64,000 nt of DNA from contig DAHUZL010000135.1 of the NCBI GenBank assembly GCA_027306655.1, positions 6,677 through 70,676 on the forward strand, written 5' to 3'. Each line of letters starts with the position of its first letter. Within the stretch, counting starts at the first letter, position 1. This DNA is from Candidatus Dormiibacterota bacterium. GTDB taxonomy: Bacteria > Chloroflexota > Dormibacteria > Aeolococcales > Bog-877. The notes under the pieces are model-generated. The model saw only the letters and a program-made list of their open reading frames with translations. It was not told the DNA's origin and searched no databases. Made by a program: the position numbers and the translations under genes. This document shows, in pieces, positions 2,165-37,018 of the stretch.

Positions 2165-2529
2165 GGCAGTAGTGTATCATACTCATACTTGGCTGCAAGC
2201 GGGGTCTCTCTCCCGGGAGGATCCCGACGACGCTGCAAGGGCGGCCTGGAGAGGGTCGCCTGCGGTCTCGCCGTGGAGCCTGCACCCGACCGGGCTGGTC
2301 CGTGGGCTCCCCGTGCCATCCTGCCCCGTGTCGCTCGCCCCGGCGCCAGCCGGGACGGGCGGGAGATCCCGGCGCCGGGCTGCTCGGCGACGTGCCGGTC
2401 GGCTCCATCGACCGCTCCGGATGGGACCGGGACCCCCGCGTCGGTGCCGTCGCGGACCATGCCGACATCGGCGGGACGTGTCGGACGCGGCCAGCTTGGT
2501 GTGCCCGGACCGGGTTGCCGGGTGTGTCC

Positions 2530-3759
2530 TCAGCCCCGGTCGGTGATGCGGAGGGGGAGCCTGCGACCCGCCCCGAGCAGCAGGATGGCGCCGACCGCGG
2601 CCACGACCGATGCGTAGAGGTACGCGGGCAACGGTCCTTGGGTGTAGAGGACGCCCATCACCAGGTTGCCCACCAACAGCCCGGCGCTGCGCGCGCCCGT
2701 GAGCATCCCCTGGGTCCGCCCCTGGGCGGAGGACGGGGCCAGGCTGGCCACCATCGTCGGCTCGACTGTCTCGATGACCCCCACCGCCGCGCCCAGCACC
2801 GCGACCGCGGCACCGAGGGAGATGATCGGCCCGCCGGTCGCGCTGAGCACGCCGAGTGCGAGCGTGGCGGCCGCGCTCAAACCGTAGCCGAGCAGCCCCA
2901 GCACCGGCACGGCGCGCCAGCGACTGTGCCCGATCGCGAACCCGACCAGCGCCGCTGCGCCCAGGAAGATGGCGTAGGCGATCACCCCGGCGCGGAGGGC
3001 ATGGGCGCCCTCGGCCACGGTGAGGACCGGGAAGCCGACGTTGTAGAAGCTGAAGCCGAAGAGCCCGGTCGCGATCAGGATGGCTCGCAGGGTGGTGCGC
3101 TCGACCGACCGCGCTGCGGCGGACGGGACCGGGACGACGACCGGCGGCGGGGCCGGCCGGCCGGCTCCGCGCTGCGGTCCCGGTCGGGGGCGCGCCAAAG
3201 ACAGGATGACCGTCGACAGCGCGAGCGGGGCCAGCGCCAGCAGGAAGACCCCGCGCAGGCTCCAGCCGAGGGTGAGGAGCCCGGCCAGGCCGAGCGTGGA
3301 CAGGAGCCCGCCCCCGAGGTCGAGGGCATTGAGGAGCCCGAAAGCGCGGCCGCGGTCCTGGGGCGCGACCGCCTCCGCCAGCATCGCCCGTCGGGACGGG
3401 TTGCGGAAGTTGCGCGCCCACCACCCCACCGCGAACAGGACGACGACCTGCCAGGGCGCGACCGCGAGCCCGATCAGCCCAAGGAGCGGGATCCCCGCAT
3501 TGCCGGCGAGCGCCACCCGGCGGTGCCCGTAGCGGTCACCGAGACGGCCGCCCACCACGGCGAGGAGCGAGCCGCCGCCATATCCGATCGCGGTCGCCAG
3601 CGCGAAGACCGGCGTCCCGGCGTGGAGCTCGACCACGAGGAGGAGCGGGAGGCCGGCGATGATCGACTGGTAGCCGAGGTCGGCCGCGGAGGCGGACAGG
3701 GTGATCGCGAGGACATCCCGGGTCACCCATCCAAAGCCGGGACGAATCCGGGGGTTCAT
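2530..3759 (-). CDS. MFS transporter
   Basis: 409 aa with 12 predicted hydrophobic segments. The Gly/Ala/Leu-rich helices and a 'GRLGDRYGHRRV' loop are typical of MFS. Confidence 0.8.
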   Translation of the reverse strand: MNPRIRPGFGWVTRDVLAITLSASAADLGYQSIIAGLPLLLVVELHAGTPVFALATAIGYGGGSLLAVVGGRLGDRYGHRRVALAGNAGIPLLGLIGLAVAPWQVVVLFAVGWWARNFRNPSRRAMLAEAVAPQDRGRAFGLLNALDLGGGLLSTLGLAGLLTLGWSLRGVFLLALAPLALSTVILSLARPRPGPQRGAGRPAPPPVVVPVPSAAARSVERTTLRAILIATGLFGFSFYNVGFPVLTVAEGAHALRAGVIAYAIFLGAAALVGFAIGHSRWRAVPVLGLLGYGLSAAATLALGVLSATGGPIISLGAAVAVLGAAVGVIETVEPTMVASLAPSSAQGRTQGMLTGARSAGLLVGNLVMGVLYTQGPLPAYLYASVVAAVGAILLLGAGRRLPLRITDRG

Positions 3760-3814
3760 CGGCCCGGGTCGGCGTTGGTCCGCGGTCTCACCCGTCCCGA
3801 GCGTCGTGCGACCA

Positions 3815-5440
3815 TCAGCCTGCTCCGAGCTGGAGGGACACCGCGTCCAGCTCGGCCTCCGCCTCCGCCAGCCGATCCCGGCGGGCGCTCCGGGCCGGGG
3901 AGCCCGCCAGGGCGGACGCCCGTGCCCGCTCGACCGCCTCCGTCAGCGCGGGGACGATGCCAGCAGTGACGTCGTCGGCCTGGCGGCACCAGGTGGTGGC
4001 GGCCTCGTCGAGCGCACCCTGGGCGGCGTGGCGGAGCCGGCCCGCCAGCTGGTCCGCGCTCTCAGCCGCCTCGGCGTGCTGTGCACGGTCGCGCCAGCGC
4101 CGACCGATCGCCCCCGGGGCGCGGGCGCGCATCCCGCGCATCCCCACCGCCAGGGCGCCGGCGACGTCGGTGCGATCGATCGAGGCCCGGGTGACGGTGA
4201 GGACCGCCGGGGGCGCGGGCGGCCAGGCCAGCTCAACCGCCAACAGCTCTGAGGCGTCGGACAGGAAGCGGTCCCGAGCCGACCGAACCTGCTCGGCGAA
4301 TCGCGCCGCCCGGGGCGCCAGGTTGCGCTCCACCTCGCCTCGCACCTGCTCGCACCAGGCATCGGCGGATTCGGTCTGCAGGGCGGGCCAGCGCGACCGG
4401 TCCCTGGTCTCAGACAGCCGGATCGCCAGGGTCGAGCGGAGGCGGTCGGCCGCCGGCTCGACGATCGTCGTCCCGGCGGCCCGACACGCCTGCCGGAAGA
4501 CCGCCTTCGCCTCGTCGCTCGAGGTGCGCAGGACAGCCACAGCCAGGCCCAGCTGCTGACGATTGCTCTCGATCCTTGCATCGGGCAGTGAGAGGGATGC
4601 CTGCTCCAGGCGCAGCACCGAGACTGCCGCCGCGCGCTCCGCCCGACCCGCTGTGACCGCCCGCGTGTCGAGGATCTCGTTCCGGGCGGCGGCGACCTCG
4701 TCGACCAGCCATCGGCGCATCGCGGCGATCCCGTCGTCGCCACCGGGCTCCAGCGCTCTCCGCGCGGACACCGCGAAGAGGGGGACGGCGCCCCCGACGA
4801 CGTCGTCCAGCTGCCGGCGGACGAAGGCGATGGTCTCGCGTACGTCCGGCGGCGAGAGGCGATCCACCTTGTTGAGGCACACCCCGAGGCGGGCGTCCGC
4901 GTCCGAGACCAGGCGCATCTGGACCACCTCCGCGGCCGAGAGGGGCGCATCGGCGCTCAGGACCATGAGGGCGGCGTCGATCCGGGAGACGTACGCCGGC
5001 CATCCGAGCCGAGCCTCGACGATGCCGGCGCCATTGCCAAGGTTGTCCTGCTCGGTCACCGCCGCGCGCAGCCGCTCCAGCGGCCATGGCGCTCCCTCCC
5101 GATCGTCCTGGGTGGCCACCACCAGGCTGGGCCGCTCGGCCCATCGAACCAGGGTGGGGACGCCGGTGACGGGCACCGCCCCGGTGGGCAGGACGGCTTC
5201 GCCCAGGAGGGCGTTCATGATCGAGCTCTTGCCTCGCTTGAAGTCACCGACCACTGCCGCGACCACGGCCAGGTCCGCCAGCCTGTGTCGAGCCTCGCGG
5301 ATCCGCTCTCGCTGAGGCGGAGGGACCAGCGCACAGCGCTCGAGCCGGGCGAGCGCGTCCTCAAGCTTGGAGCGATCCCGATCCGCGCGGGCGGCCGGAC
5401 CGGTGGAGGGTCGCGCGGTCGGGCGGGTCACGGCGCGGAC
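3815..5440 (-). CDS. Dynamin-family (BDLP/IniA-like) GTPase. Start uncertain: the ORF is open to 5905 but overlaps the upstream gene.
   Basis: G1 'VVGDFKRGKSSIMNALLGEAVLPTG' and G4 'CLNKVDRL' are present. The G3 position reads 'IVEARLG' rather than 'VDTPG'. The protein is on the same strand as, and immediately downstream of, the Cys-repeat proteins and the Ehr operon. Confidence 0.5.
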   Translation of the reverse strand, partial: VRAVTRPTARPSTGPAARADRDRSKLEDALARLERCALVPPPQRERIREARHRLADLAVVAAVVGDFKRGKSSIMNALLGEAVLPTGAVPVTGVPTLVRWAERPSLVVATQDDREGAPWPLERLRAAVTEQDNLGNGAGIVEARLGWPAYVSRIDAALMVLSADAPLSAAEVVQMRLVSDADARLGVCLNKVDRLSPPDVRETIAFVRRQLDDVVGGAVPLFAVSARRALEPGGDDGIAAMRRWLVDEVAAARNEILDTRAVTAGRAERAAAVSVLRLEQASLSLPDARIESNRQQLGLAVAVLRTSSDEAKAVFRQACRAAGTTIVEPAADRLRSTLAIRLSETRDRSRWPALQTESADAWCEQVRGEVERNLAPRAARFAEQVRSARDRFLSDASELLAVELAWPPAPPAVLTVTRASIDRTDVAGALAVGMRGMRARAPGAIGRRWRDRAQHAEAAESADQLAGRLRHAAQGALDEAATTWCRQADDVTAGIVPALTEAVERARASALAGSPARSARRDRLAEAEAELDAVSLQLGAG

Positions 5441-6909
5441 GCCGCCGAACCGGGCTGACCGCTGGCCCCGGTGGGCGCCGAACCCGGGGGCCAGCTCCCG
5501 GCGCTGTCGAGCGCGCGCGGGTGCCATGCGCTCGCCTGCGTCTCCAGTCCGGACTCGAACCCCGAGCAGTACGCCGCCGCCCGGGCGGCGGCCCCGCCTT
5601 CGGCGCCCGCCGCCTCGTGCCGCGTGTCCCAGCTCTGCTTGCGGAGGACCTCGTCCAGCTCCCAGGTCAGCATCGCCAGCTGTGCGCGAGCGGCGACGAG
5701 AGCGGTGCGCGCCGCGCTCGTCTCCGAGGCGGCGGCGAGAACGTGGGGGAGGTCCCGCCAGCAGGACCCGGTGCCGGCCTGCTGATCGGCGACGCCGGCG
5801 GGGTCCAGCAGTCGGGCCGCGACCCACGCACTGCGGCGGACGGTTGCCACCTGTCGCTCCCGGCATCCGCGGCAGGGTCCGCGGTTGTCCAGCTGGCGGC
5901 GGCATCGGCTGACGAGCGCGGCGGGAGTCCGCGGTGCCGCTGACGGCCCGTCCTCATCGGCGAGCGCCTGGGCCAAGATCCGGGTGAGCTGTTCCGCCAG
6001 CATCGGAGCGCGGGAGGGGGCGGCGCGGGCGCACGCCCAGAGGTGTCGGCGGCAACCCCAGCGTGCCGCGGGGTCACTGGGGCTGGCCTCGCCGAGCTCG
6101 TCGGCGGCCCACGCGATCCATCGCCCCTCGGCGCGACGTCGATGGGCACAGACCGGACAGCCCTCCGGTCGCGGATCAGAACCGCCGGCGGACAGTCCCG
6201 CCGGGCCCGGCCGCCGTCGCGTTGCGTCGGAATCGCGGCCGGCGAGGACCGCGAGCCGGGCCCAGGTGAACGGCTCAGGCGGGGTGGGGTCAGGCCCGGG
6301 GGCGAGCTGGCGGCGGGCCAGGACGATCGCCGCGAGCGACTCCGCCGGAGAGAGCCGGCCCACCAGGCTCGTCGCGTGGACGACACAGAGCGCCTGGGCG
6401 CCTGCGGCGGCGGCGGCGATCTCGGGGTCGGCCAGGCCGGGACGCAGGAGCTCGATGCGGCGGTCGACCGACTCGGCGATACTGGTGCACGCCGGACAGG
6501 GGCGCTGGGGGCCGACGCGACGGGCGAGGAGCGCCGGCTCGGTGCGATCGAGCACGGTGAGGGCGCCTGCCACCGCCGCCGCCGCTGCCCGCACCACGGC
6601 GCCATGGACGACGGCGGCCATGCCGAGCTCGGCTCGGCCCGCCAGGTCGACCGCGTGCTGGGAGCAGAAGCCGCCGGCGTTGGCGATCTGCGCCAGGACG
6701 TCCGGATCGGAGTAGGACTCGGAGCAGAACCAGAACCAGTACCGCTCGGCGGTCCGTTGCTCCTCCCGGCAGAGCAGGCACCCGGGATCGGCGAGCTCCG
6801 CCGCCCAGGCGGCCCGCAGCTGGGCGCGGGTCGCCGAGGGCCGCCCCCGCCCGCGGAGGAGCCCGATCACCGCAGCAGGTCGACGGCCCCGGCCCATCCC
6901 CCGGTCCAG
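5428..6909 (-). CDS. Cys/Trp-rich repeat protein B. Four copies of a putative metal-binding module (CxxC ... C-x2-H-x-W). Function unknown.
   Basis: Repeats: 'CLLCREEQRTAERYWFWF...GFCSQHAV', 'CPACTS...ALCVVHAT', 'CPVCAHRRRAEGRWIAWA...RWGCRRHLWAC', 'CRGCRERQ...SCWRDLPH'. The opposite-strand ORFs are R/G/D-rich shadow frames. The start is approximate (M at 6909 or an internal GTG). Confidence 0.45.
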   Translation of the reverse strand: MDRGMGRGRRPAAVIGLLRGRGRPSATRAQLRAAWAAELADPGCLLCREEQRTAERYWFWFCSESYSDPDVLAQIANAGGFCSQHAVDLAGRAELGMAAVVHGAVVRAAAAAVAGALTVLDRTEPALLARRVGPQRPCPACTSIAESVDRRIELLRPGLADPEIAAAAAGAQALCVVHATSLVGRLSPAESLAAIVLARRQLAPGPDPTPPEPFTWARLAVLAGRDSDATRRRPGPAGLSAGGSDPRPEGCPVCAHRRRAEGRWIAWAADELGEASPSDPAARWGCRRHLWACARAAPSRAPMLAEQLTRILAQALADEDGPSAAPRTPAALVSRCRRQLDNRGPCRGCRERQVATVRRSAWVAARLLDPAGVADQQAGTGSCWRDLPHVLAAASETSAARTALVAARAQLAMLTWELDEVLRKQSWDTRHEAAGAEGGAAARAAAYCSGFESGLETQASAWHPRALDSAGSWPPGSAPTGASGQPGSAASAP

Positions 6910-7637
6910 GCGAGTCCCTCCACCCAGGCCGCCCGCTCCTCCGGGCCCACCGTCGGCCCCCGCCAGGTCATCGAGCGGCCGAACCGGGCGATCCGGCCGG
7001 CGAGGTCCTCCAGCGCCGACAGGCTGCGGAGGTGGTGGGGGTGGTCGGTGGGGCCGTCCAGCAGGTGGGGTCGGCAGAGCGGTCCGCCGCCGTCGAGGCA
7101 GAGGGGGCAGGCGCGCCGCTGCCACACCGGCTCCGTCGCCGCCACCAGCGCCATCGTGCGCCGGAGCCCCTCCATCGGTCGCATCGCCCGCAGCCAGCCG
7201 GCTCCGGGATGCGCGAGCGGGTTGTCGCCGGCCCGCTGCACCATCTCGATGAAGTCGCAGGTGAGACAGGGCCCGCGCTCCAGGAGCAGCCGGCGTCCGA
7301 CCGGCCAGGGCAGGCGGCAGGCGCGGCGCATCGCCCGGGCGGCCCGTGCGATGAGGTCCTCGTGGAGGACGGTGGTGGCGAAGGGGCGGCCACCCCTGCA
7401 CTCGATCTCCATCGCGGCGAACGCCCACCCGTGACGGCGGCACAACCCCCAGCTCCGCCACAGTTGATGGCGAACGTCGGCCACCATGATCGCGCCCCCG
7501 TCGAGCATCGACCAGACCTGGCGGAGCTCATCCACCTGGAGCGGCCTCTCGCGGAGGAGGGCTCGCGGGACGTGCGGCGCAGCCGCCATCTCGATTGCAT
7601 CCCCGTCCGCGCGGGCGGACCGACTCGGAGCCGGCAT
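6867..7637 (-). CDS. Cys/Trp-rich repeat protein A, a paralog of protein B with 2-3 modules
   Basis: 'WRSWGLCRRHGWAF', 'CLTCDFIEMV', 'CPLCLDGGGPLCRPHLL'. It is collinear with B modules ('WGxCRRHxWA ... RxCR ... GPCxxC'). The start codon is 1 nt past the stop of the NuoL-like gene. Confidence 0.45.
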   Translation of the reverse strand: MPAPSRSARADGDAIEMAAAPHVPRALLRERPLQVDELRQVWSMLDGGAIMVADVRHQLWRSWGLCRRHGWAFAAMEIECRGGRPFATTVLHEDLIARAARAMRRACRLPWPVGRRLLLERGPCLTCDFIEMVQRAGDNPLAHPGAGWLRAMRPMEGLRRTMALVAATEPVWQRRACPLCLDGGGPLCRPHLLDGPTDHPHHLRSLSALEDLAGRIARFGRSMTWRGPTVGPEERAAWVEGLAWTGGWAGAVDLLR

Positions 7638-7638
7638 C

Positions 7639-9732
7639 TCAGCGGATGAACAGGATGATGACGAACACCGCCACCACGTAGAGCAGGTAGAGGCTCACGC
7701 TGCCGGCCTGGAGGCGACCAGCGGCCCGCGACAGGCAGCGCGCGGCGCCGACCGCGGGCCGGTACACGTAGGCGTCGACCGGTTCCACCACCCGCCGGGC
7801 GTAGCGGAGGGAGCGGACGAAGTAGGGCGGCTGGTCGTAGTCGCCCTCGATCGCCCGCTGGGCGCGGAAGATGCCGCCGAAGATCGACCGGAACGGGTTG
7901 GTGAAGGCGGTCGCGGTGTACTGCATGGCGGGGTGCGGCTGAGCAATCGCACCGGCCCAGACCGCGGTCTCGCGGCGCGGCCGGCGACCGAGCAGGCGGA
8001 GCACACCGGCGGTGACGCCGATGACGATCGCGAGGGTGCAGAAGATGTAGGTGGGGGAGATGAAGGCGTCGGTGAAGCTGGTGGGGACGATGACCACCCC
8101 GTTGCCGGGGATCACCTGGTGGAGGAAGGTCGCCCCCAGGCGGACCGGGAGGGGGAACCGGCCGGGGTGGAGGAAGATCGGCGGCAGGACGGCGTCGAGC
8201 AGGCCGCGGACCCGGGTGGCGCTGCCGGCGGCCGCGGCCGCCGCCCCCACCCCCAGGGGCGGCACCAACGCGGTCAGCACCGCCGTGGCGGCGGTGACCA
8301 CCATGCCCAGCCGCATCGCCCAGGGCACCTCGCGGGCGCTCCGGGCGGCCTCGCTGCGGGCGACCCCGAGGAAGGTGCCGCCGACCACCCGCACGTAGGT
8401 GGTGACCGCGAGGGCGAAGGTCAGCGTCAAGAGCATCCCCGCCCCCGCCAGGGCGACCCGGCCCTCGGGGCTGCCGAGGATCCGGGCGCGGATCAGGACC
8501 TGCAGCCCCAGCCACTCGGTCTGGAAACCGTTCAGGGGGGGCACGCCGGCGAGCCCCATCGCCCCCAGGAAGAAGAGGAGGGTGGTCCAGCGCATGCGCC
8601 GGGCGAGCCCGCCGAGGCGGTCCATGTCGAGCTGATGGGTGGCGGTGTCGACACTGCCGGCGCCCATGAAGAGCGTGCTCTTGAGGAGGCCGTGGTAGAG
8701 CGTGTGGAGCAGGACCACGACCACCGCGGTGGCGGCGAGGAGCGGGTGGTGGCTCTGGCGGAAGACCAGCGCCGCGCCCAGCATCGCCACCATGAAGCCG
8801 AGGTTCTCGATCGTGCTGTAGGCGAGCATGCGCTTCAGGTCGGACACCAGCAGCGAGAACAGCACGCCATACAGGGCGGTGAGCACGCCCAGGCCGAGCG
8901 TGAGATAGCCCCACCAGGCTGCCGGCTCGGGCAGCAGCGTGACCAGGGCGAGCACGAGGCCGTAGATGCCCGTCTTCACGACCAGCCCGGAGAGGAGAGC
9001 CGAGACGTGGGCGGGCGCCGCCGGGTGCGCCTCCGGCAACCAGCCCTGGAGCGGCAGCAGGCCGGCCTTGACCCCGAAGCCGACCAGGAAGAGCACGAAG
9101 GCGGCCGAGGCCGCCGCCCCGCTGACCTGGGGGTGCCGGGCCAGCGCCACGAAGCTGACGCCGGGGTGGAGGGCGCCGACCAGCGCGAAGGCGACCACCA
9201 GGGCGAGGAAGCCCACCTTGGCCAGCGCCAGCAGCAGGAATGCCGCCTGGGGCCGGTGGGGTCGGTCGAACTCCACCGTCACCAACACGTAGCTGGCGAT
9301 CACCATGCACTCCCAGGCGACAAGGAACGTCACCGCATCGGCTGCGGCGACCACCACCACGATGGTGGCGAGGACGAGGGCGAGCAGCGCGTGGGCGGTG
9401 GCGCGACGCAGCGGCCCGCCAACATGGGCGGTGTAGGCGGCGGAGTAGAGGCAGACCCCGGTGCCGACGACGCCGGTGAGGAGGAGGAAGAGACCGCCGA
9501 GAGGCGTCGCCCGCACCGCGAACGCGCCGATCGGGGTCGACACCGGCAGGGCGGCATGGCCGTGCGCCCCGCCCAGCCAGAGAACGGCCGCCGCCACCGC
9601 GGCCAGGCTGGCGGCGACCCCCGCCGCCGCGGAGAGGTCACCGGCCGCCGGCCAGCGGGCGACCGAGAGCCCGATCGCCGCGGCGGCGATGTACGCGGCC
9701 AGGGCCGCGCCCAGGAGCTCAAGCGCCATCGC
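7639..9732 (-). CDS. NuoL/HyfB-like proton-pumping antiporter subunit of an Ehr/Hyf-type complex
   Basis: About 697 aa polytopic protein with 'WLPEAHPAAPAHVSALLSGLVVKTGIYG' and 'MLAYSTIENLGFM' (Mrp/NuoL signature). The start was chosen at 'MALELLGAAL' (9732). The ORF extension to 9954 overlaps the upstream gene. Confidence 0.8.
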   Translation of the reverse strand, partial: AMALELLGAALAAYIAAAAIGLSVARWPAAGDLSAAAGVAASLAAVAAAVLWLGGAHGHAALPVSTPIGAFAVRATPLGGLFLLLTGVVGTGVCLYSAAYTAHVGGPLRRATAHALLALVLATIVVVVAAADAVTFLVAWECMVIASYVLVTVEFDRPHRPQAAFLLLALAKVGFLALVVAFALVGALHPGVSFVALARHPQVSGAAASAAFVLFLVGFGVKAGLLPLQGWLPEAHPAAPAHVSALLSGLVVKTGIYGLVLALVTLLPEPAAWWGYLTLGLGVLTALYGVLFSLLVSDLKRMLAYSTIENLGFMVAMLGAALVFRQSHHPLLAATAVVVVLLHTLYHGLLKSTLFMGAGSVDTATHQLDMDRLGGLARRMRWTTLLFFLGAMGLAGVPPLNGFQTEWLGLQVLIRARILGSPEGRVALAGAGMLLTLTFALAVTTYVRVVGGTFLGVARSEAARSAREVPWAMRLGMVVTAATAVLTALVPPLGVGAAAAAAGSATRVRGLLDAVLPPIFLHPGRFPLPVRLGATFLHQVIPGNGVVIVPTSFTDAFISPTYIFCTLAIVIGVTAGVLRLLGRRPRRETAVWAGAIAQPHPAMQYTATAFTNPFRSIFGGIFRAQRAIEGDYDQPPYFVRSLRYARRVVEPVDAYVYRPAVGAARCLSRAAGRLQAGSVSLYLLYVVAVFVIILFIR

Positions 9733-10561
9733 GCGCCTCCCCGGCTCGCGGGGCGCGCTCGGTCGCCCGATCGATGGCCAGCAGCAGCCCGTGCAGGAGC
9801 GCCTGCGGGGTGGGCGGGCAGCCGGGCACGTAGACGTCGACCGGGAGGCAGCGGTCGAGCGGCCCCACCGTCGTCGGCCCGCCCGCGAAGCAGCCGCCGT
9901 GGATCGCACAGACCCCGGCCGCGAGGACCAGCTTGGGCGACGGCATCGCGGCATAGGTGGCCCGCAGCGCCGCCTCCATGTTCTCGGTCACCACCCCCGT
10001 GACCAGCAGGACGTCGGCATGCCGCGGGGTGGGGGTGAAGAAGATCCCGAGCCGGTGCAGGTCGACGTAGGGGGTGCCCAGCATCTGCAGCTCCGCCTCG
10101 CAGCCGTTGCAGGACCCGGCGTCGACGTGACGGATGTGGAGCGAGTGGCGGAACAACCGGTGGCCGTGGCGCCGCACCGCGTCCGCCGCCCGCGTCAGGG
10201 GACGCGGCGCGGGCGGGCGGCCGGGCTCCCAGCCCAGCTCCAGGGTGAGACGGCCGCGGTCACGCACGGCGACGCGCGGGTCGGGGTCGACGGCAAAGGC
10301 CTGCGGGAACGCCCGCACGCATCGCCCGCAGAGGACGCAGGCGCCCTGATCGAATCGGAGCGTTCCGGCGGCCTCGGTCCCGGTCGCGGTGAGCGCCGCC
10401 GTGGGGCAGAGGGCGGCCGCCGCCAGCGCATCGGCGGGTGTGAGCCCAGGCCAGCGGCAGGTGATCGACGACGGTGCCCCGTCGTCGCCCACGCCGGCCG
10501 GACGGGGAAAGCGCGTCGTCCGGGTCCCAGTCCGAAGGCCACAGGCGATCCACCGGCTCAT
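9719..10561 (-). CDS. Fused 4Fe-4S ferredoxin-like segment plus NuoB/HycG-like small subunit
   Basis: N-terminal 'CPTAAL...CVLCGRCVRAFP'. NuoB-like part: 'GSCNGCEAE', 'PRHADVLLVTGVV', 'GVCAIHGGCF', 'VPGCPP', so the four FeS Cys are retained. The ATG at 10561 overlaps the large-subunit stop as ATGA. Confidence 0.8.
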   Translation of the reverse strand: MSRWIACGLRTGTRTTRFPRPAGVGDDGAPSSITCRWPGLTPADALAAAALCPTAALTATGTEAAGTLRFDQGACVLCGRCVRAFPQAFAVDPDPRVAVRDRGRLTLELGWEPGRPPAPRPLTRAADAVRRHGHRLFRHSLHIRHVDAGSCNGCEAELQMLGTPYVDLHRLGIFFTPTPRHADVLLVTGVVTENMEAALRATYAAMPSPKLVLAAGVCAIHGGCFAGGPTTVGPLDRCLPVDVYVPGCPPTPQALLHGLLLAIDRATERAPRAGEARDGA

Positions 10562-12102
10562 CGGTCGAACTCCGCCACCGAGAGGTCGAAGCTGGCCTCG
10601 ATCACCGGGTAGTCGGTGAGGTTGTTGCCGCTGGCGCAGGCGTGGGCGTAGGGATGCCAGTTGACCACCGCCGGCGGTCGCGCGCGCCAGTGCCGCACCC
10701 GCCCGTCGCTGTCGAGCTCCACGAAGGCCAGGGTCTCGCCGCCGGGGGCCTCCGCCCAGCCGAGGGCGGCGCCGGCGCGGAGCTCCGGCGGTCCCATCGG
10801 GCCCGGGGCCTCGATCCAGACATCGAGGAGCCGTCGGAGCAGGCCGAGCGACGCGTCGATCTCGTCGAGGCGCACCTGCAGCCGTGCCGCCGCGTCGCCG
10901 TCGCGTCGCACCGGGACCCGGATCGGGAGCCCGGGGTAGGCGAGGTACGGGTGGTCGCGTCGCGCGTCGCAATCGGCTCCGGACGCCCGGCCGACAGGGC
11001 CGACCAGCTGGTGCCGCTCCGCATACGCGGGCTCCAGCACCGCGGTGGTGTCGAGGCGGTCCAGGAACGTCGAGGTCTCGTCGAGGAGCGCGCGCAGCGC
11101 CGACGCTCGATCGGCCCACCCGTCCACCCGCCGGCGCAGGTGGTGGGGGACGACCGAGGGCTGGATGGCGTCGGCCCCGCCGATGGACAGGCACCCGCGC
11201 AGGTACCGGTGGCCGGTGAGGTCGGCGGCGGTGCGCAGGAGCTCCTCGGTGAGGAGCCCGTACTGGGCGCTCGCCACCAGCAGGCCGGTGGCGTCGGCGA
11301 GGCGCGTGACCGCGGCGCAGTGGCTGCGCACGCGCTCCAGCTCGGCCAGGCAGGTCCGGGTCCACTCCGCGGCGGGGCCGACCGCGATGCCGGCGGCGCG
11401 CTCCACCGCCCGGGCGAAGGCGAGGGCGGTGGCGAAGCTGGAGGTCCCGGCCAGCCGCTCGGCGAAGACGAGGGCCCGGTCCGCCGGCAGTCCCTCGGCC
11501 ATCCGCTCCAGGGCCCGGAACTTGTAGCCAAGGCGCGGGCTGACCTGGACCAGGTCCTCCCCACCGGAGCTGAAGAGGAACGCGGCCGACTCCTGGGGCC
11601 CGCTGCGGACCGGGCCGAGGGGGAGCTGGACGAGACCCTGGCCCTCGACGGCCGGTCCGAAGGCGGGGCGCGGGTCCGCCCCGGCCGGGAACTCGGGCGC
11701 CGATGGCGACCGCAGCGGCGGAGCGCCCGGCGAGAGGTGGCGCCGCAGCGGGGCCGGGCGCGGGTGCCCGATCGGCTCCAGCCCGTGAGCCTCCCAGATC
11801 TCGCGTTCGTACCAGCTCGCCGCATGCACGATCGGGGTGAGCGAGGCGAAGGTCGTCCCCTGCAGCTCCGTCGAGAGGACGAGCCACTGCGGGTCGCCGT
11901 GGAGCTGGAGGACGGCGGTGAGCCGGGGTCGGCGCGCGTCGTCGGCGGTGGCGAAGAGGTCGGCGAGGACCGCCGGTCCGGCGAGCCCGGCGACCAGCTC
12001 GGTGAACACCGCCTCGGGGCAGCTCGCCTGCAGCTCGTCGTCGGCCACCGCCCGCGTCCGCAGGCCGCGGTCCTCCGCCAGCTGGCGAAGGGATCGGGTC
12101 AT
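10558..12102 (-). CDS. NuoC+NuoD fused HycE-like 'large subunit' lacking NiFe-binding cysteines
   Basis: 514 aa. NuoC-like 'ASWYEREIWEAHGLEP'. NuoD-like 'LPLGPVRSGPQESAAFLF...RLGYKFRALE'. C-terminus 'NWHPYAHACASGNNLTDYPVIEASFDLSVAEFDR'. No N-terminal RxCxxC motif and no C-terminal DPCxxC motif is present. Confidence 0.8.
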   Translation of the reverse strand: MTRSLRQLAEDRGLRTRAVADDELQASCPEAVFTELVAGLAGPAVLADLFATADDARRPRLTAVLQLHGDPQWLVLSTELQGTTFASLTPIVHAASWYEREIWEAHGLEPIGHPRPAPLRRHLSPGAPPLRSPSAPEFPAGADPRPAFGPAVEGQGLVQLPLGPVRSGPQESAAFLFSSGGEDLVQVSPRLGYKFRALERMAEGLPADRALVFAERLAGTSSFATALAFARAVERAAGIAVGPAAEWTRTCLAELERVRSHCAAVTRLADATGLLVASAQYGLLTEELLRTAADLTGHRYLRGCLSIGGADAIQPSVVPHHLRRRVDGWADRASALRALLDETSTFLDRLDTTAVLEPAYAERHQLVGPVGRASGADCDARRDHPYLAYPGLPIRVPVRRDGDAAARLQVRLDEIDASLGLLRRLLDVWIEAPGPMGPPELRAGAALGWAEAPGGETLAFVELDSDGRVRHWRARPPAVVNWHPYAHACASGNNLTDYPVIEASFDLSVAEFDR

Positions 12103-13580
12103 CGCCGCACCTCGCGAGCCGCGTCGGCGAGCAGGGTGTGGAGGGGCCCGGGAACGAAGACGCCGAGGACCAGGACCGCCGCCAGGAGGACATAGCCAGG
12201 GAGCAGGACCGCCGCTCCGAGCTCGGCCCGCCGCGGGAGCGGGTCGGCCCGACCCTCGCCGAACACCATCGTGCTGAAGGGGGCGACCAGGGCGAGGAAC
12301 CCCACCAGCAGGAGGAGGGCGATCAGGCCGGCGGCGCCGAAGGCGCGGGCCCCGATCCCGCCCGCGACGATCGACGCCTCCGAGAGGAAGAGCCCGAACG
12401 GAGGCGCTCCCGCGATGGCGAGGGCCCCGGCCAGCACCAGGACGGCGGCCGCCGGGGCGACCCGGATCATGCCTCGGACCTCGCTGATGGTGGTGGTGCG
12501 GAAGCGGAGGAGGAGGTTGCCGGCGTTGAAGAACATGAGGCACTTGGCGAGGCTGTGGGCCAGCATCTGGAGCAGCGCGCCGAACACCGCCAGGGGGGCG
12601 CCCAGCCCGAAGCCGGCGGCGATCAGGCCCATCTGGTCGACCGACGAGTAGGCCAGCAGTCGCTTGTAGTCGCGCTGGGAGACGAGGAAGACGACCCCCA
12701 CGGCCATCGAGAGGAGCCCGAAGGCGAGCAGGGCGGAGTGAAGCTCGCTGCCCCCGTGCTGCGCCGGGGTGGCCAGCGCCAGCACCCGGACGATCGCGAG
12801 CATGGCGCAGTTGAGCTCGGCGCCGGACAGCATCGAGCAGATCGGGGCAGGGGCCTGGCTGTGCGCGTCGGGGAGCCAGGTGTGCATCGGCGCCAGCCCG
12901 GCCTTGGTGCCGAAGCCGACGAGCACCAAGAGGAACCCCAGGGTGGCGAGAGTGGGGGAGAGATGGGGCCCCGCGGCGCGCAGGACGGGGATCGCGAAGT
13001 TGTAGCTGCCGCCGAGCCACCCGACCGCCGACGCGTAGAGGCACAGGAATCCGAACAGGGCGATCAGCTCGCCCGCCACCGCCAGCATGATGAACTTCCA
13101 CGCTGCCTCCAGAGGACCGTGGGACCCGTAAAAGTCGACCAGCGGAGCGGAGGCGAATGTGGTTGCGGTCACCGCGGTCCACAGCAGGCCGAGGTTGCCG
13201 GCCACCGTGGCCGCCACCATGGTGAAGACGAAGAGGTGGAAGAGGGCGAAGTACCGGCGCGTCTCGCCGGCGCGCAGGGTGTGGACGTTCGCGGAGGAGC
13301 GGAAGTAGGCGATCGAGTAGAGGGCGGCCAGCGCGGAGACCAGCGTCACGATCAGGAGCGCGAGCGCACCGAGGTGGTCAAGGTAGAGCCAGTCGCCGAA
13401 CGCCGTGAACCGGCCCCGCTGCACCACCCGGGCGACCAGCGTGAGTCCCAGACCGAGGCCCACGAGTGCGGTCGGGACGACCAGGATCAGGCGCAGGTCA
13501 TCCCCCGGCACCAGCCAGGTCGCGACCGCGGCGGCCAGCGGCACCGCCAGCACGGCGAGCAGGAGCGCGGCGTCGATCAT
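12099..13580 (-). CDS. NuoN/NuoM/HyfF-like antiporter subunit
   Basis: Start at 'MIDAALLLAV'. Motifs 'GFGTKAGLAPMHTWLPDAHSQAPAPICSMLSG' and 'LLAYSSVDQMG'. The upstream R/P-rich ORF extension is rejected. The gene overlaps its neighbour by 4 nt. Confidence 0.75.
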   Translation of the reverse strand: MIDAALLLAVLAVPLAAAVATWLVPGDDLRLILVVPTALVGLGLGLTLVARVVQRGRFTAFGDWLYLDHLGALALLIVTLVSALAALYSIAYFRSSANVHTLRAGETRRYFALFHLFVFTMVAATVAGNLGLLWTAVTATTFASAPLVDFYGSHGPLEAAWKFIMLAVAGELIALFGFLCLYASAVGWLGGSYNFAIPVLRAAGPHLSPTLATLGFLLVLVGFGTKAGLAPMHTWLPDAHSQAPAPICSMLSGAELNCAMLAIVRVLALATPAQHGGSELHSALLAFGLLSMAVGVVFLVSQRDYKRLLAYSSVDQMGLIAAGFGLGAPLAVFGALLQMLAHSLAKCLMFFNAGNLLLRFRTTTISEVRGMIRVAPAAAVLVLAGALAIAGAPPFGLFLSEASIVAGGIGARAFGAAGLIALLLLVGFLALVAPFSTMVFGEGRADPLPRRAELGAAVLLPGYVLLAAVLVLGVFVPGPLHTLLADAAREVRR

Positions 13581-14221
13581 CCGCGCAGCCGGGTGAGCTC
13601 GGAGGTGTCGGTGCTGAAGACCTCCTCGCGCATCCGAGCCAGCAGGAAGGACATCACCACTACCGCGATCAGGACGTCGAGGACCAGGGCGAACTCGATC
13701 AGCAGGCTCAGCCGCGGCGCCAGCACCAGCCCGATCAGGAGGAGCCCGTTCTCGGCCGCCAGCAGGCCCCCCATCTGGAGCACGCCGTCGCGTCGGGCGG
13801 TGGTGGTGAAGAGGCCGAGGAGCAGGACGGCGATGCCGATGCCGAGGTCGGCCCCGGGGAGGAGATGGGACGGCGAGGGGATCCGGCTGGCCGCGATGAA
13901 GCCGGCCAGCGACAGGGCGGCGCCGAGCAGGAGCGCGGTGGGGAACCCCACGTGGTAGGAGCTCTCCCGACCGGCGCTGAGGGCGACCCGCATCCGCCGG
14001 CGCAGAAGGGTGGGGATCGCCACCCCCTTGAGGGACACGATCAGCAGGCCGAAGAGGAGCAGCTCCGTCAGGTGGGTGTGGACGAAGAGAGCGATCGCGA
14101 TGCCGCCGAGCAGCCACGACTGGAGCTGGTAGGCGCCCACCGCCGTGCGCAGGCGACGGGCCACGATCAGCTGGAAGCTGACCAAAAGGAAGAGGGCCGC
14201 GAGGGTGATCTCAGGCAGCAC
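13577..14221 (-). CDS. HyfE/HycP-like small membrane subunit
   Basis: 214 aa with about 7 TM segments, positioned between the NuoH-like and NuoN-like genes as in hyf/hyc operons. Confidence 0.65.
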   Translation of the reverse strand: MLPEITLAALFLLVSFQLIVARRLRTAVGAYQLQSWLLGGIAIALFVHTHLTELLLFGLLIVSLKGVAIPTLLRRRMRVALSAGRESSYHVGFPTALLLGAALSLAGFIAASRIPSPSHLLPGADLGIGIAVLLLGLFTTTARRDGVLQMGGLLAAENGLLLIGLVLAPRLSLLIEFALVLDVLIAVVVMSFLLARMREEVFSTDTSELTRLRG

Positions 14222-14263
14222 GGGACCATCCCCCGGATCGACGCCGGGCGTCGGCCATCGCCG

Positions 14264-15295
14264 TCACCGCCCCAGGGTGGAGAGCACCAGGCCCAGGAAC
14301 GCGAGCACGAAGCTGCCCCCGAGGTACTCGGGCACGCGCATGATCCGGATCTTGGCGAGCGCGGACTCGATCACCACGATCAGGAAGGCGGCGGCCAGCA
14401 TCTTGCCGACGAGCGTGGCGATCGCCACCGCGAAGGCGGGGACGGTCACCGCTCCCGCCAGTCCGGGGGGGAAGACCAGCACGTTGAGCCAGACCACCAG
14501 CACCACGAAGAGCTTCATGGCGCCTCCCCATTCCATCAGCGCCTGGTCAGAACCGGCGTACTCGAACAGGCGGGAGGACTCGATCATGGAGAGCTCCTGG
14601 GCGCTGTTGGGGTTGTCGATCGGGAGCCGTCCGGTCTCGGCCAGGACCACCATCAGGAAGGCGGCCGCGATCAGCGCATGGCTCGGGGTGATCGCGGCGG
14701 AGCTGGTGAAGAGGGTCTGGTTGACCACGAACGGCACCGTCCCGCCGGAGATGAACCCGACCGCGAAGAACACCACGATGAAGGTGGGCTCAGCCAGCGA
14801 GGAGACGAAGCGGGACCGGCTCGCGCCCAGGCCGCCGTAGACGCTGCCGCTGTCCATCGCCGCCAGGTTGGTGAAGAAGCCGCCGATGCCGATGACGAAC
14901 CCGCTCCCCACCATGTCGGCCATGAACGCCCAGCTGAGCGGGGCGGCGGTGAGGACCGGGATGAGGACGGCGAAGGCGATCGGCGTCGCGAAGACCACGT
15001 AGGGGGCGACGCGGAAGATGAACGAGGCGTCAGGGGTGGTGGAGCGGTCCTTGCCGAAGAGCTTGCGGAGGTCGCGGTAGGGCTGCAGCGGTGACGGCCC
15101 CCGCCGCGACTGCAGCCTCGCCTTGCCGGTCTCGATCACCCCCTTCAGCAGGGGCGCGAGCGCGAGCACGACCAGCAGCGCGACTACCTGGCCGACCGCG
15201 TCGGCTAGCACGTGGCACCCCAGGTGGACCCGATCGAGGCTCGCGCCATCCCCCAACTCCCGAAAGGCCTTCCGGTCTTCGTGGTCAGGGGCCAT
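14264..15295 (-). CDS. NuoH/HycD/HyfC-like membrane subunit
   Basis: 'APLLKGVIETGKARLQSRRGPSPLQPYRDLRKLF' is the NuoH/HycD N-terminal signature. It is the first gene of the operon. The true start is probably an internal GTG near 15211. Confidence 0.75.
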   Translation of the reverse strand: MAPDHEDRKAFRELGDGASLDRVHLGCHVLADAVGQVVALLVVLALAPLLKGVIETGKARLQSRRGPSPLQPYRDLRKLFGKDRSTTPDASFIFRVAPYVVFATPIAFAVLIPVLTAAPLSWAFMADMVGSGFVIGIGGFFTNLAAMDSGSVYGGLGASRSRFVSSLAEPTFIVVFFAVGFISGGTVPFVVNQTLFTSSAAITPSHALIAAAFLMVVLAETGRLPIDNPNSAQELSMIESSRLFEYAGSDQALMEWGGAMKLFVVLVVWLNVLVFPPGLAGAVTVPAFAVAIATLVGKMLAAAFLIVVIESALAKIRIMRVPEYLGGSFVLAFLGLVLSTLGR

Positions 15296-29486: not shown

Positions 29487-29644
29487 CGGCCATCGATGAG
29501 GCTGAGGCACCATGATAGGTCCTGAGTTTGTCCTCTCAGCCAGTTGACGAGGGCGACTCGCCCACGGCCTTATTGAGATCAGACGGTCGGGGCTAGAGTC
29601 ACCTCGGGCCGCCCTCGTCATCAACGGCACCGGGAGGGAGCACA

Positions 29645-31492: not shown

Positions 31493-31521
31493 CGGCGGAG
31501 ACGGCGGCTGCCTTCCGCCAT

Positions 31522-32790
31522 TTGGAATTCCTCGCCGGCCAGTGTGGACCACGGCCGGCTGGATCACCGTCGGCGGTCAGGGCACGGGGGTACATTGCTG
31601 ATGCCCTCGAGCGCCTGGGGATGGATGTTGCAATCACGCCGATCTCTGCTCCGCGCTACGCCCTGGTGACGTCACGGCTCCGCGCCGCCAGGTCGGGAGG
31701 TTGGCGGGAAGTCGAGCACAAGCCGGTGTGGTTCGCCGGCGACACGGGATGCGACGCCATTCAGGCCGAGTTGGTCGACGGGGGGGACGGCAGCGAGGCT
31801 TTCCTTGGTGGCGGAGGCGTCGCTGACAAGGTTGTGTTGATCGCGCGCGATGTATACGTCGATTATCCAGACGTCGTCTTGACCGATCGGCTTCTACGGC
31901 ACCGGCCGGCCGCGGTGCTGTACACGACCAGGGCCGGCTACCAAGGCGGTCCCCCCGACGTGTACTACAACTATCGGACCGTGGAGAGTCACCCGCCCCC
32001 GCCTTCGGCGGTGATCGACTACGCGGCGGCACTGGATCTACTTCGGCGACCACCGAGGCTGGTCGAGTACCAGGCGCAGTACCGGGTCGAGGCGGGGACA
32101 TGCGCCCACGTCGTCGCCACCCTAGCGGGTTCCGACCCCCGCGCCGGTCGGGTCGTAGTGTGCGCTCACTACGACAGCGTTCCCGGGAGCCCGGGTGCCG
32201 CTGACGATGCCGGCGGGGTGGCTGTCGTGCTCGCGCTTGCCGAGCGCCTCAGTGCCCAGGCCCGCCGCGGCCAGCCTCCTCGGCAAACCGTGACCTTTGT
32301 GGCGTGGTCCGGACACGAGACGGGGGTTCACGGGAGCAGCCAGTTCCTCGGCCGGCATCCGGAGTTTGTCGCCAGCTGCCGCTTCGCGCTCAATTTTGAC
32401 GGGATTGGGAGCCGTCTCCACCTCAACCAGATGCTAGGCTGCGGCAGCCCGGAGGTGCTAGCGGCAGTCCAGGGGCGGGTCGCCGGGTGTGGGTATGAGT
32501 GGCCGATGTCCATAGGCCCGGGAGGGCTCGACGTGATCAACCTGACGGCCGTCGGCGTGCCTTGGGTCTCCTTGGGCCAGGGGTTGACCGCGTGGGCGCA
32601 CACGCCCCTCGATGACGTCGACAGCTGCAGCCCCGGCGCCCTTGCCGCGCCGCTGGTTGCGGCCTGGGCGATTTTGGAGTGGGCGGTCGAGGCGGCGGAG
32701 ATTCCGCGCGGGTACCCGCCGGCTCTGGCCGCGGACGCTGCCGAGTACTGTGCCCGGTTCGGTTGGGGGCCGATCGTGGACGAGGACTGA
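31522..32790 (+). CDS. M28 family metallopeptidase
   Basis: 'VVCAHYDSVPGSPGAADDAGGVAVVLALAERL ... VAWSGHETGVHGS'. A TTG start just after the SBP stop is inferred. The ORF's 5' portion overlaps the SBP gene. Confidence 0.6.
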   Translation: MEFLAGQCGPRPAGSPSAVRARGYIADALERLGMDVAITPISAPRYALVTSRLRAARSGGWREVEHKPVWFAGDTGCDAIQAELVDGGDGSEAFLGGGGVADKVVLIARDVYVDYPDVVLTDRLLRHRPAAVLYTTRAGYQGGPPDVYYNYRTVESHPPPPSAVIDYAAALDLLRRPPRLVEYQAQYRVEAGTCAHVVATLAGSDPRAGRVVVCAHYDSVPGSPGAADDAGGVAVVLALAERLSAQARRGQPPRQTVTFVAWSGHETGVHGSSQFLGRHPEFVASCRFALNFDGIGSRLHLNQMLGCGSPEVLAAVQGRVAGCGYEWPMSIGPGGLDVINLTAVGVPWVSLGQGLTAWAHTPLDDVDSCSPGALAAPLVAAWAILEWAVEAAEIPRGYPPALAADAAEYCARFGWGPIVDED

Positions 32791-32818
32791 TCTGTCCCAA
32801 CTCTACCGAGTGCGCGCG

Positions 32819-35852: not shown

Positions 35853-35853
35853 C

Positions 35854-36858: not shown

Positions 36859-37018
36859 CTCCCTCACGGCCGGAGCTGTTGACCACGGGGGTGGAGCGGA
36901 CGGTTCTGGTGCAGATGCAGGTGCGGGCATGGGGGGTGGGCGAGACTGACCCGTAGAACTGTGGCCGGCCGGCTTCCTTCGGCGCAATTGGCCGACCGAC
37001 CAAGTCAGGATCCCGACC

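Follow-up and report, generated by a model that had tools for sequence, protein, structure and literature searches.

Dynamins remodel membranes through GTP-driven dimerization and a conformational cycle, and in their GTPase domain the aspartate of the G3 motif positions Mg2+ via a water molecule while the backbone NH of the G3 glycine senses the gamma-phosphate. The best match to the 538-residue dynamin-like protein encoded in the window, which is the whole 64-kb stretch of DNA analyzed here, was BDLP of Nostoc punctiforme (PDB 2J68, 2J69, and 2W6D), both by structure (Foldseek E value, 6.5e-15; probability, 1.0) and by family profile (E value, 2.7e-33). In both proteins, the G domain leads into a long helical neck and trunk, and the G1 motif of BDLP, GDMKRGKS, is nearly identical to GDFKRGKS in the window protein; overall, the two share only ~16% identity, with a TM-score of 0.44. 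BDLP has a DSPG motif and a full switch II, whereas the window protein lacks this block. Furthermore, BDLP carries a hydrophobic paddle where the clade of the window protein has a Gly/Arg-rich tip, part of which was modeled with low confidence.

Mycobacterial IniA (PDB 6J72 and 6J73), a single-chain BDLP of similar length, was matched with a Foldseek E value of 4.8e-14 and a TM-score of 0.45, and the family profile aligned across aa 34 to 416. IniA is reported, as cited in a preprint, to be active as a GTPase and to carry out membrane fission (bioRxiv 10.1101/2023.10.03.560745). The IniA gene, like the window gene, lies in an operon with membrane-associated partners, but the setting is iniBAC for IniA and an Ehr-type complex for the window protein, and IniA has an intact DTPG, unlike the window protein. 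Cj-DLP2 of Campylobacter jejuni (DLP1/DLP2; PDB 5OWV) was the best single-sequence match in the PDB (E value, 6.8e-08), and LeoA of Escherichia coli (PDB 4AUR) was a structural match in Foldseek. C. jejuni DLP1/DLP2 and LeoA work as dynamin pairs, whereas the window contains no second dynamin. Membership of the Eleos (LeoA/LeoBC) antiphage defense system was considered and rejected; the PADLOC match to LeoA was weak (E value, 2.6e-4; aa 19 to 78 only), and because it reaches only to the P-loop, it provides no evidence of membership.

The fungal protein Mmc1 is a dynamin-related pseudoenzyme that has a BDLP-like fold without GTPase catalytic motifs, and its proposed role is that of a membrane scaffold that does not depend on cycling nucleotides (bioRxiv 10.1101/2023.10.03.560745). 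In Mmc1, the GTP-binding and the GTP hydrolysis motifs are both missing, a state conserved in many orthologues, whereas the window protein lacks only G3 and switch II. Also unlike Mmc1, the loss in the window protein is a single deletion in a single known lineage.

The dynamin-like gene and its retained motifs

The dynamin open reading frame (ORF) is uninterrupted and aligned with its homologues through the conserved C terminus, and it showed none of the hallmarks of a pseudogene that were sought (frameshifts, premature stops, or truncation). A sequence-only reading of this DNA had called the N-terminal boundary ambiguous, as the ORF overlaps the upstream gene, here termed gene B. The minus-strand ORF from 3815 to 5905 is indeed present in the ORF list of the window; however, GC3 was 0.88 inside the dynamin gene and 0.68 in the stretch of the ORF that precedes 5431. 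GTG 5431 is the most likely start; it was chosen because homologue N termini align with residue 1 of the 538-aa protein or with the residues just after it, because this codon and the stop of the upstream gene share 4 nt (GTGA), and because public gene calls give the identical 538-aa protein. ATG 5527 is a possible alternative start, and GC3 over 5432 to 5527, at 0.88 when read in the dynamin frame and 0.91 in that of gene B, does not decide between the two.

On the evidence of its sequence and predicted structure, the protein is a dynamin superfamily member of the BDLP/IniA type and belongs to a Dormibacteria-centered clade. The Pfam Dynamin_N family (PF00350) was matched with 51 bits (cutoff, 27), covering only positions 2 to 79 of the 168 in the profile, whereas the matches of the intact relatives P0003 and P0002 covered positions 1 to 163 and 1 to 166 with 99.5 and 85.7 bits, respectively. 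Residues G62, F64, K65, R66, G67, and K68 of G1 were invariant in all 15 aligned sequences, as were P87 and T89, the latter of which the alignment marks as the probable retained G2 threonine. The proposal that this is a BDLP-family dynamin with a canonical G1 (GDFKRGKSS) and a canonical G4 (NKVD) was borne out by the Dynamin_N match, by invariant residues in both motifs, and by the BDLP-like fold found with Foldseek (Table 1).

The AlphaFold2 model of the protein had a mean pLDDT of 82.8. Its top Foldseek matches were BDLP (2j69), IniA (6j72), Cj-DLP (5owv), mitofusins, and LeoA, all with a probability of 1.0. The long, stalk-like helical region that the earlier reading had seen at the C terminus was recovered as predicted helices at residues 250 to 280, 284 to 341, 345 to 397, 440 to 490, 492 to 509, and 511 to 537. 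Within the stalk, the Gly/Arg-rich tip is conserved; G425, A426, A428, G430, R435, P439, G440, G443, W446, and R447 were invariant in a nine-member clade, and residues 421 to 427 were modeled with a pLDDT below 50. This conserved tip is the one feature that points to putative membrane binding or to GTP-dependent self-assembly and hydrolysis.

Table 1. Features of the dynamin-like gene and its neighbors (all on the minus strand; positions are those of the window)
Feature	Position	Basis
Dynamin-like (BDLP-family) gene, 538 aa plus stop	3815..5431	Dynamin_N match, Foldseek, public gene calls
G1/P-loop GDFKRGKSS, aa 62-70, intact	5222..5248	Alignment
Switch I/G2 region PVTGVPT, aa 87-93	5153..5173	Alignment
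GIVEARLG, aa 136-143, beta-strand before G3	5003..5026	Aligns to GVREVVVE of homologues
Deletion junction GWP/AYVS, aa 143-149; ~84 nt (28 codons) gone at ~4996/4997	4985..5005	Alignment gap
SRIDAALMVLSADAP, aa 149-163; alpha2 remnant, strand beta4, next loop	4943..4987	Aligns to PR(I/V)DVALLVLxxDAPLS
G4 NKVD, aa 187-190, intact	4862..4873	N187, K188, and D190 invariant
G5-like VSAR, aa 221-224, intact	4760..4771	S222 invariant
Helical neck/stalk, aa 233-538	3818..4735	AlphaFold2 helices
Gly/Arg-rich tip, aa 422-450	4082..4168	
MFS transporter, 409 aa, downstream	2530..3759	Pfam MFS_1, 96.9 bits
Gene B, 480 aa, Cys-rich, DUF6062-like, upstream	5428..6870	Pfam DUF6062, 26.1 bits, just below the cutoff of 27
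256-aa Cys-rich protein, weak gene B paralogue	6867..7637	BLASTP
Ehr-type (hydrogenase-related, complex-I-like) membrane complex genes, upstream	7639..15295	Pfam, NCBIfam

The gap at G3 and switch II

Where VDTPG was expected, some 70 residues after G1, the sequence-only reading had found GIVEARLG and taken it for a degenerate G3. Alignment instead placed a gap of exactly 28 residues between P145 and A146 relative to 14 of 14 aligned homologues. GIVEARLG lies before this gap and corresponds to the strand that precedes G3 (predicted strand at residues 137 to 144; the counterpart in intact P0003 is a strand at residues 123 to 130). In the closest relatives listed (P0031 to P0033), DTPG begins 93 residues after the first glycine of G1, not ~70. 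Thus, the protein indeed has no G3, with no DxxG between G1 and G4 or elsewhere in the protein, but the motif has not degenerated; the whole block is deleted, and it is this deletion that, as an illusion of alignment, makes a degenerate motif seem to be there.

The family profile aligned the missing block to GIEIVDSPGLNDTEARN-ELSLG of BDLP and placed it on the G3/switch II region of the solved structures (DSPG in BDLP, and DTPG in Cj-DLP2 and IniA). The block comprises strand beta3, the DxxG of G3, the switch II loop, and about the first two-thirds of helix alpha2. It was present in every intact relative examined, with highly conserved L, G, DTPG, GS, and NT residues, and the gap takes in 10 of the 64 columns at which at least 13 of the 14 intact homologues agree (LGDTPGGSNT). 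The spacing from G1 to G4 is 125 aa here, compared to a median of 152 and a typical value of 151 among 177 sequences with G1. Only two spacings were shorter; one (P0054) was an artifact of the regular expression, and the other (P0020) reflected a shorter insert between G2 and G3, with DTPG kept. Consistent with a missing block, nearly all phmmer alignments were split into two stretches, usually with the break near residues 140 to 150 of the query.

We found no segment resembling D.[PAS]G, DxxG, or D[TSM]PG between G1 and G4, and a search of the 64-kb window for a displaced copy of G3 and switch II, using tblastn with segments of homologues and a six-frame motif search, returned only noise. The segment SRIDAALMVLSADAP, within which it had been suggested that a true DxxG might lie, was rejected as an alternative G3. 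Its RIDAAL matches PR(I/V)D(V/A)AL, a conserved strand that follows switch II, and SADAP, likewise considered, aligns to the conserved xDAPL; all homologues have both submotifs alongside DTPG.

The predicted structures agree with the alignment. In the AlphaFold2 model of intact P0003, the block forms a short helix (residues 134 to 137), a strand (139 to 143), G3, and a helix (152 to 164), whereas in the model of the window protein, strands 137 to 144 and 153 to 159 are joined directly. With the same 15-sequence input alignment, block-mean pLDDT from the P-loop strand to switch I was 43 to 84 for the window protein and 77 to 96 for P0003. As G3 is lost, canonical GTP hydrolysis would not be expected, as the sequence-only reading had suspected. 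Its further proposal of a protein that binds GTP but is impaired in hydrolysis appears doubtful because the deleted unit, running from beta3 through G3 and switch II to half of alpha2, includes the core strand beside the P-loop strand. Nor is the label of pseudo-GTPase regulator supported by the evidence; the deletion was seen in one lineage only and in none of the ~175 relatives inspected, which gives no sign that selection maintains the G3-less state.

We also considered the possibility that the gap is an artifact or a minority variant, in that the real gene has the 84 nt and these were dropped or collapsed in short-read metagenome assembly. The source does appear to be a metagenome-assembled contig, and the deletion occurs in one lineage only. 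However, the same 538-aa protein was found on a Logan contig assembled from SRA reads (SRR13766253), with 1 mismatch in 4,280 nt, which was intergenic; the Logan contig was also seen in a second sample, and the 74.7-kb NCBI contig agrees with it across the junction, although the NCBI and Logan assemblies possibly share reads and are not fully independent. In addition, the deletion keeps the reading frame exactly and lies at a structural boundary, and we noticed no collapse-prone repeat on reading the sequence around the junction. Taken together, these observations make an artifact very unlikely.

Age and consequences of the deletion

Of 5,419 matches, ~175 relatives were inspected, and none of these carried the deletion. 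Nothing but the identical protein exceeded 39% identity when 5.8 billion cluster representatives were searched by word index, when HMMER was run exhaustively over 1.84 billion representatives, or when GTDB species genomes and JGI metagenome contigs were searched; the 15-billion-protein set likewise contained no relative above this level. Because these collections hold no relative above 39% identity, the deletion could not be dated. Tajima relative-rate tests over all columns gave no acceleration of the window lineage (e.g., 55/47, 61/58, and 50/47; all P > 0.05), and the same was true of the G domain (all P > 0.1); the outgroups (P0010, P0015, and P0016) share only ~25% identity, and the tests have low power. 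One comparison of the stalk only, against P0002 with P0016 as the outgroup, gave 36/15 (P = 0.003). When in-group sequences served as outgroups, the significance obtained was spurious, owing to the basal position of the window lineage; the values given here are those with true outgroups. The ratio of G-domain to stalk identity was 1.45, compared to 1.40 within the clade, indicating no disproportionate decay of the G domain. Given that no acceleration is detectable outside the deletion and that all other G motifs are preserved, a recent origin on its branch is most likely, and we consider the deletion probably fairly recent. Eight substitutions fall at highly conserved positions, and three of these are near the junction: P131L, which precedes it by 14 residues, and F147Y and P149S, which come just after it. 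These could reflect adaptation following an older deletion.

The reading that we modestly favor is a lineage-specific deletion that caused loss of function or a strongly hypomorphic state, i.e., an incipient pseudogene whose frame is still intact. In this reading, one lineage of the Dormibacteria-centered dynamin clade has lost 28 codons in frame, and with them one structural unit of the GTPase domain. From the established mechanism of GTPases, loss of the G3 aspartate, the G3 glycine, and switch II would abolish GTP-driven dimerization and the conformational cycle, and absence of the core strand beside the P-loop strand would probably weaken nucleotide binding. The gene is probably still cotranslated with the run headed by the Ehr-type complex. 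Against a broken gene stand the intact frame through the conserved C terminus, with a coding-like GC3 of 0.88; the removal of a clean structural unit rather than a random piece, which may leave a foldable domain; and the three substitutions at conserved sites near the junction. The deletion could instead have produced a functional pseudo-GTPase, selected as a GTP-independent membrane scaffold or regulator acting with the Ehr-type complex, the Cys-rich proteins, or the transporter. The normal length of the intact ORF, a start coupled to the upstream stop (GTGA) in a packed gene run, retention of the stalk and its clade-conserved tip, the lack of excess divergence from intact relatives, the excision of exactly one beta-alpha unit, and the clustering of substitutions near the junction would all fit such a protein, and Mmc1 provides a precedent for a BDLP-like pseudoenzyme (bioRxiv 10.1101/2023.10.03.560745). 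However, the deletion is a singleton among the relatives inspected, the collections searched yielded no orthologue in which the G3-less state is conserved, and Mmc1 and established pseudoenzymes have typically lost several motifs, a loss that their orthologues share. In the window protein, G1, G2, G4, and G5 all remain canonical, as expected of a recent lesion, and the Cys-rich upstream partners are not conserved beside dynamins in other genomes. We therefore regard a selected pseudo-GTPase as possible but somewhat unlikely, and we hold it unlikely that the protein is a GTP-independent membrane scaffold retained by translational coupling at the end of the Ehr-type gene run of a Dormibacteria-like soil bacterium.

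Some dimerization-activated GTPases receive catalytic elements in trans, and this, together with the perfect preservation of G1, G2, G4, and G5, might suggest that the protein is an active GTPase with a noncanonical substitute for G3, contributed from elsewhere in the chain or by a partner subunit. However, neither the interval from G1 to G4 nor any frame of the window contains a G3-like segment, the loss extends beyond the motif to the strand and switch II, and no Ras-like GTPase is known to us that functions without strand beta3. Such activity is thus highly improbable. The most likely view is that one lineage carries a broken or GTPase-dead copy and that this is not a new kind of protein.

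If the gene is simply broken, the deletion matters mainly for annotation, as automatic pipelines would call it a dynamin family protein, although judging from its motifs it almost certainly performs no GTP cycling. If the protein still functions, it would be a natural experiment in which membrane binding and scaffolding by a bacterial dynamin have been split from the GTPase cycle, and it would extend the pseudo-GTPase concept from eukaryotic Mmc1 to bacteria. Were the scaffold reading true, it would be the first bacterial dynamin pseudoenzyme and would offer a natural "minimal" G domain, with a fold that tolerates removal of a core strand.

Gene neighborhood

Ten tightly packed minus-strand genes form a run that starts with the Ehr-type membrane complex, and the dynamin gene is the ninth of these. 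The Ehr-type genes, whose ends abut or overlap, encode NuoH-like, 214-aa, NuoN-like, NuoC/D-like, NuoB-like, and HyfB-like proteins. The stop of gene B, which is also called as 480 aa on the Logan contig, overlaps the dynamin start by 4 nt. The 256-aa protein showed weak BLASTP similarity to gene B over WG.CRRH.WA ... RGPC..C (E value, 0.02) and had no match in Pfam or NCBIfam. Gene B was rejected as a conserved partner of the dynamin, as its sole homologue (29% identity) adjoins a Na+/H+ exchanger with no dynamin nearby, and Cys-rich partners next to dynamins were not conserved in the other genomes examined. The window contains no second intact dynamin paralogue and no MutS_V pair. Promoter and terminator scans of positions 2400 to 7800 and Rfam and tRNA scans of the window returned nothing. 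The MFS gene lies 55 nt past the dynamin stop, and an MFS gene also follows the dynamin at another locus (L007). The Dormibacteria dynamin clade, which has received little study, repeatedly adjoins Ehr-type respiratory-like complexes and MutS-domain-V ATPase pairs, associations that to our knowledge have not been described before.

Family assignment and the missing G3/switch II block

The sequence-only reading had placed the 538-aa product among the BDLP/IniA-type dynamins with a C-terminal helical stalk, and this assignment was borne out by Pfam, an AlphaFold2 model, and PDB matches. The Pfam Dynamin_N profile matched the protein at 51 bits (cutoff, 27), with the match ending at profile position 79 of 168; the intact, G3-bearing homologues P0003 and P0002 matched over positions 1 to 163 (99.5 bits) and 1 to 166 (85.7 bits), respectively. 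In the model (mean pLDDT, 82.8), long helices (aa 250 to 537) follow the G domain, and its top PDB matches were Nostoc BDLP (2j69; E value, 6.5e-15), IniA (6j72), Cj-DLP1/2, mitofusins, and LeoA. PADLOC returned only a weak LeoA match, limited to the region up to the P-loop. All strings quoted in the earlier reading were located: GDFKRGKSS (aa 62 to 70), GIVEARLG (aa 136 to 143), SRIDAALMVLSADAP (aa 149 to 163), and NKVD (aa 187 to 190). G1, G2, G4, and G5 are canonical, and the stalk and a clade-conserved Gly/Arg-rich tip (aa 422 to 450) are kept.

Alignment with 14 homologues (24 to 38% identical to the window protein) revealed a single clean 28-column gap between P145 and A146. In all 14, this segment reads (P)LLxxG(L/V)VLxDTPGxGSVxxHNTxxTx, with a DMPG variant in P0002, and the family profile aligns it with the G3/switch II of solved structures (BDLP, GIEIVDSPGLNDTEARN-ELSLG; Cj-DLP2, ITLVDTPGLNA; IniA, LAFVDTPGVGG). 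The earlier observation of an aberrant G3 was real, but the motif is deleted rather than degenerate: GIVEARLG, the proposed degenerate G3, aligns instead with GVREVVVE, the conserved strand just before G3. The alignment also rules out SRIDAALMVLSADAP, which that reading had itself raised as a possible G3 site, since RIDAAL and SADAP correspond to PR(I/V)DVAL and xDAPL, and every homologue carries both of these as well as DTPG. Neither a copy of the missing segment, in any frame, nor a second dynamin gene was found elsewhere in the window.

In the AlphaFold2 model of intact P0003, the missing block comprises a short helix (134 to 137), a strand (139 to 143) whose last residue is the Asp of DTPG (D143), the loop of switch II, and approximately two-thirds of helix 152 to 164. 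In the model of the window protein, the flanking strands (137 to 144 and 153 to 159) are linked by eight residues. Both models were built from input alignments of the same 15 sequences; over the region spanning the P-loop strand and switch I, block means of pLDDT were 43 to 84 for the window protein versus 77 to 96 for P0003, soft evidence that the G-domain core may be perturbed.

Rarity, authenticity, and age of the deletion

When 1.84 billion representative proteins were searched exhaustively with HMMER, 5,419 hits were obtained, and the top non-self match shared 39% identity with the window protein; among the hits listed, nearly all aligned in two stretches, with breaks usually near query residue 140 to 150. 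The G1-G4 distance is 125 in the window protein versus a median of 152 (typically 151) in the 177 retrieved sequences having G1, none of which lacks the G3/switch II block. The two other short values reflect a regex artifact (P0054) and a shorter G2-G3 insert with DTPG still present (P0020). In the homologues P0134 and P0170, an Asp-to-Asn change in G3 replaces DxPG with NxPG (TNSPG and TNCPG); both are otherwise full length and keep the remainder of switch II. No close relative of the window protein was found in any collection searched.

That the deletion is an assembly artifact is improbable, because an independently assembled Logan contig (SRR13766253, seen in two samples) agrees across it and encodes an identical 538-aa protein. 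The contig matches window positions 2873 to 7152 with 1 mismatch in 4,280 nt, at intergenic position 3774. The window gene is a new BDLP-family member with a lineage-specific in-frame switch II deletion.

In the established GTPase and dynamin mechanism, the Mg2+-coordinating water is positioned by the G3 Asp, the gamma-phosphate is contacted by the backbone NH of the G3 Gly, and switch II ties nucleotide state to G-domain dimerization and to the membrane-remodeling movements of the neck and stalk. Because the G3 Asp and Gly, switch II, and strand beta3 beside the P-loop strand are gone, neither GTP hydrolysis nor GTP-dependent assembly would be expected from this mechanism, and nucleotide affinity is probably lowered. 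The protein could conceivably still bind membranes or partners in the absence of a nucleotide cycle, since the stalk and tip remain, and the eukaryotic BDLP-like pseudoenzyme Mmc1 provides a precedent for such a role (bioRxiv 10.1101/2023.10.03.560745). Motif loss in Mmc1, however, is broad and conserved across orthologues, whereas the present deletion is found in one lineage.

At least 13 of the 14 intact homologues share a residue in 64 columns. The window protein has that residue in 46 of these columns and a different one in 8, and the other 10 fall in its deleted block; clade members carry 0 to 5 substitutions in the same columns. Near the junction, P131L lies 14 residues before it and F147Y and P149S just after it. 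Tajima relative-rate tests with true outgroups showed no acceleration of the window lineage (in every test, P > 0.05 over all columns and P > 0.1 in the G domain), and one of the stalk-only comparisons (with P0002; outgroup, P0016) gave a P value of 0.003. The G-domain/stalk identity ratio was 1.45, which we regard as the same as the 1.40 within the clade. These results and the motif content fit a recent deletion or continued constraint alike. We nevertheless favor a recent deletion, inactivating or strongly hypomorphic, over a maintained pseudo-GTPase, an artifact, or an active noncanonical enzyme, and hold it to be somewhat probable, because a canonical P-loop, G4, and G5 that are now useless are expected of a recent lesion and the deletion is unique to the lineage. 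The gene is thus most likely an inactivated copy. Maintenance as a pseudo-GTPase is rather unlikely, leaving a genuine bacterial dynamin pseudoenzyme as a minority possibility, and retention of activity by noncanonical means is very improbable.

Start codon and gene neighborhoods

G+C content is approximately 75% across the window. The minus-strand ORF spans 5905 to 3815 but looks like coding sequence only from GTG 5431 onward; GC3 is 0.88 within the gene versus 0.68 in the extension (5432 to 5905). GC3 is similar in both overlapping frames at an alternative start, ATG 5527, but nothing supports that codon, whereas GTG 5431 overlaps the upstream gene's stop (5428 to 5430) as GTGA, aligned homologue N termini coincide with residue 1 of the 538-aa version or lie directly after it, and both public gene calls (n = 2) are exactly this protein. 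The supposedly ambiguous N terminus, overlapping gene B by approximately 100 to 470 nt, is an ordinary 4-nt overlap of the kind typical of translational coupling.

Genes of the window cluster and paired or adjoining genes at loci of relatives (L numbers; own locus numbering)
Feature	Sequence	Position	Strand
NuoH-like	Window	14264-15295	-
214-aa protein	Window	13577-14221	-
NuoN-like	Window	12099-13580	-
Fused NuoC/D-like	Window	10558-12102	-
NuoB-like with N-terminal ferredoxin-like part	Window	9719-10561	-
HyfB-like	Window	7639-9729	-
Cys-rich protein, 256 aa	Window	6867-7637	-
Gene B, Cys-rich, DUF6062-like, 480 aa	Window	5428-6870	-
Dynamin-like protein	Window	3815-5431	-
MFS transporter	Window	2530-3759	-
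MutS domain V pair	L002	11880-15016	
MutS domain V pair	L004	2612-5400	
MutS domain V pair	L005	6560-9582	
MutS domain V pair	L006	2788-6002	
MutS domain V pair	L009	~6593-9729	
MutS domain V pair	L010	~6558-9595	
MutS domain V pair	L018	~11749-12876	
DUF190 protein	L007	9663-10001	
DUF190 protein with CBS domain	L053	858-2099	
Region with gene B homologue	L051	10001-12375	

The dynamin gene occupies ninth place in a tightly packed run of ten genes, which includes a six-gene complex-I-like/hydrogenase-4-like module (7639 to 15295, minus strand). As read from the translation, its NuoC/D-like large subunit apparently lacks NiFe-binding cysteines (AGTS for CGxC; C-terminal DLSVAEFDR), which points to a putative Ehr-type complex rather than a true hydrogenase. 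Dormibacteria MAGs are the source of the closest dynamin homologues, and similar Ehr-type operons adjoin homologues in L002/L003 and L007; L002 holds two such modules, the second with 70 to 89% protein identity to that of the window.

Gene B and the 256-aa protein have a WG.CRRH.WA ... RGPC..C module in common, and gene B scores just under the DUF6062 cutoff. The one homologue of gene B that could be detected (29% identity) is encoded immediately after a Na+/H+ exchanger gene; therefore, both known occurrences of the Cys-rich proteins are downstream of cation/proton-antiporter-type genes. Gene B is no conserved partner of the dynamins, and no universal partner was found across the fetched loci. 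In seven of these, including two that carry the same dynamin (P0002, in L002 and L004), the Dormibacteria-clade dynamin lies beside an adjacent pair of ~490- to 545-aa proteins with MutS domain V only, an association of which we know no description; the window has no such pair. Immediately upstream of intact dynamins P0003 and P0031, and overlapping their starts, is a DUF190 protein.

In the window, a glycogen-phosphorylase-like gene, one short gene, and a DUF6909 gene occupy 40693 to 45827. Members of the same two families adjoin each other close to the dynamin locus in another Dormibacteria MAG (L005, 1 to 1964), which suggests wider synteny. A lower-GC block at 29500 to 40700 (63 to 68% versus ~75% elsewhere) encodes two family-5 solute-binding proteins, an M28 peptidase, a dimethylformamidase-beta-like protein, an arginase-family enzyme, and a PucR-type regulator and may be an acquired nitrogen-catabolism island.
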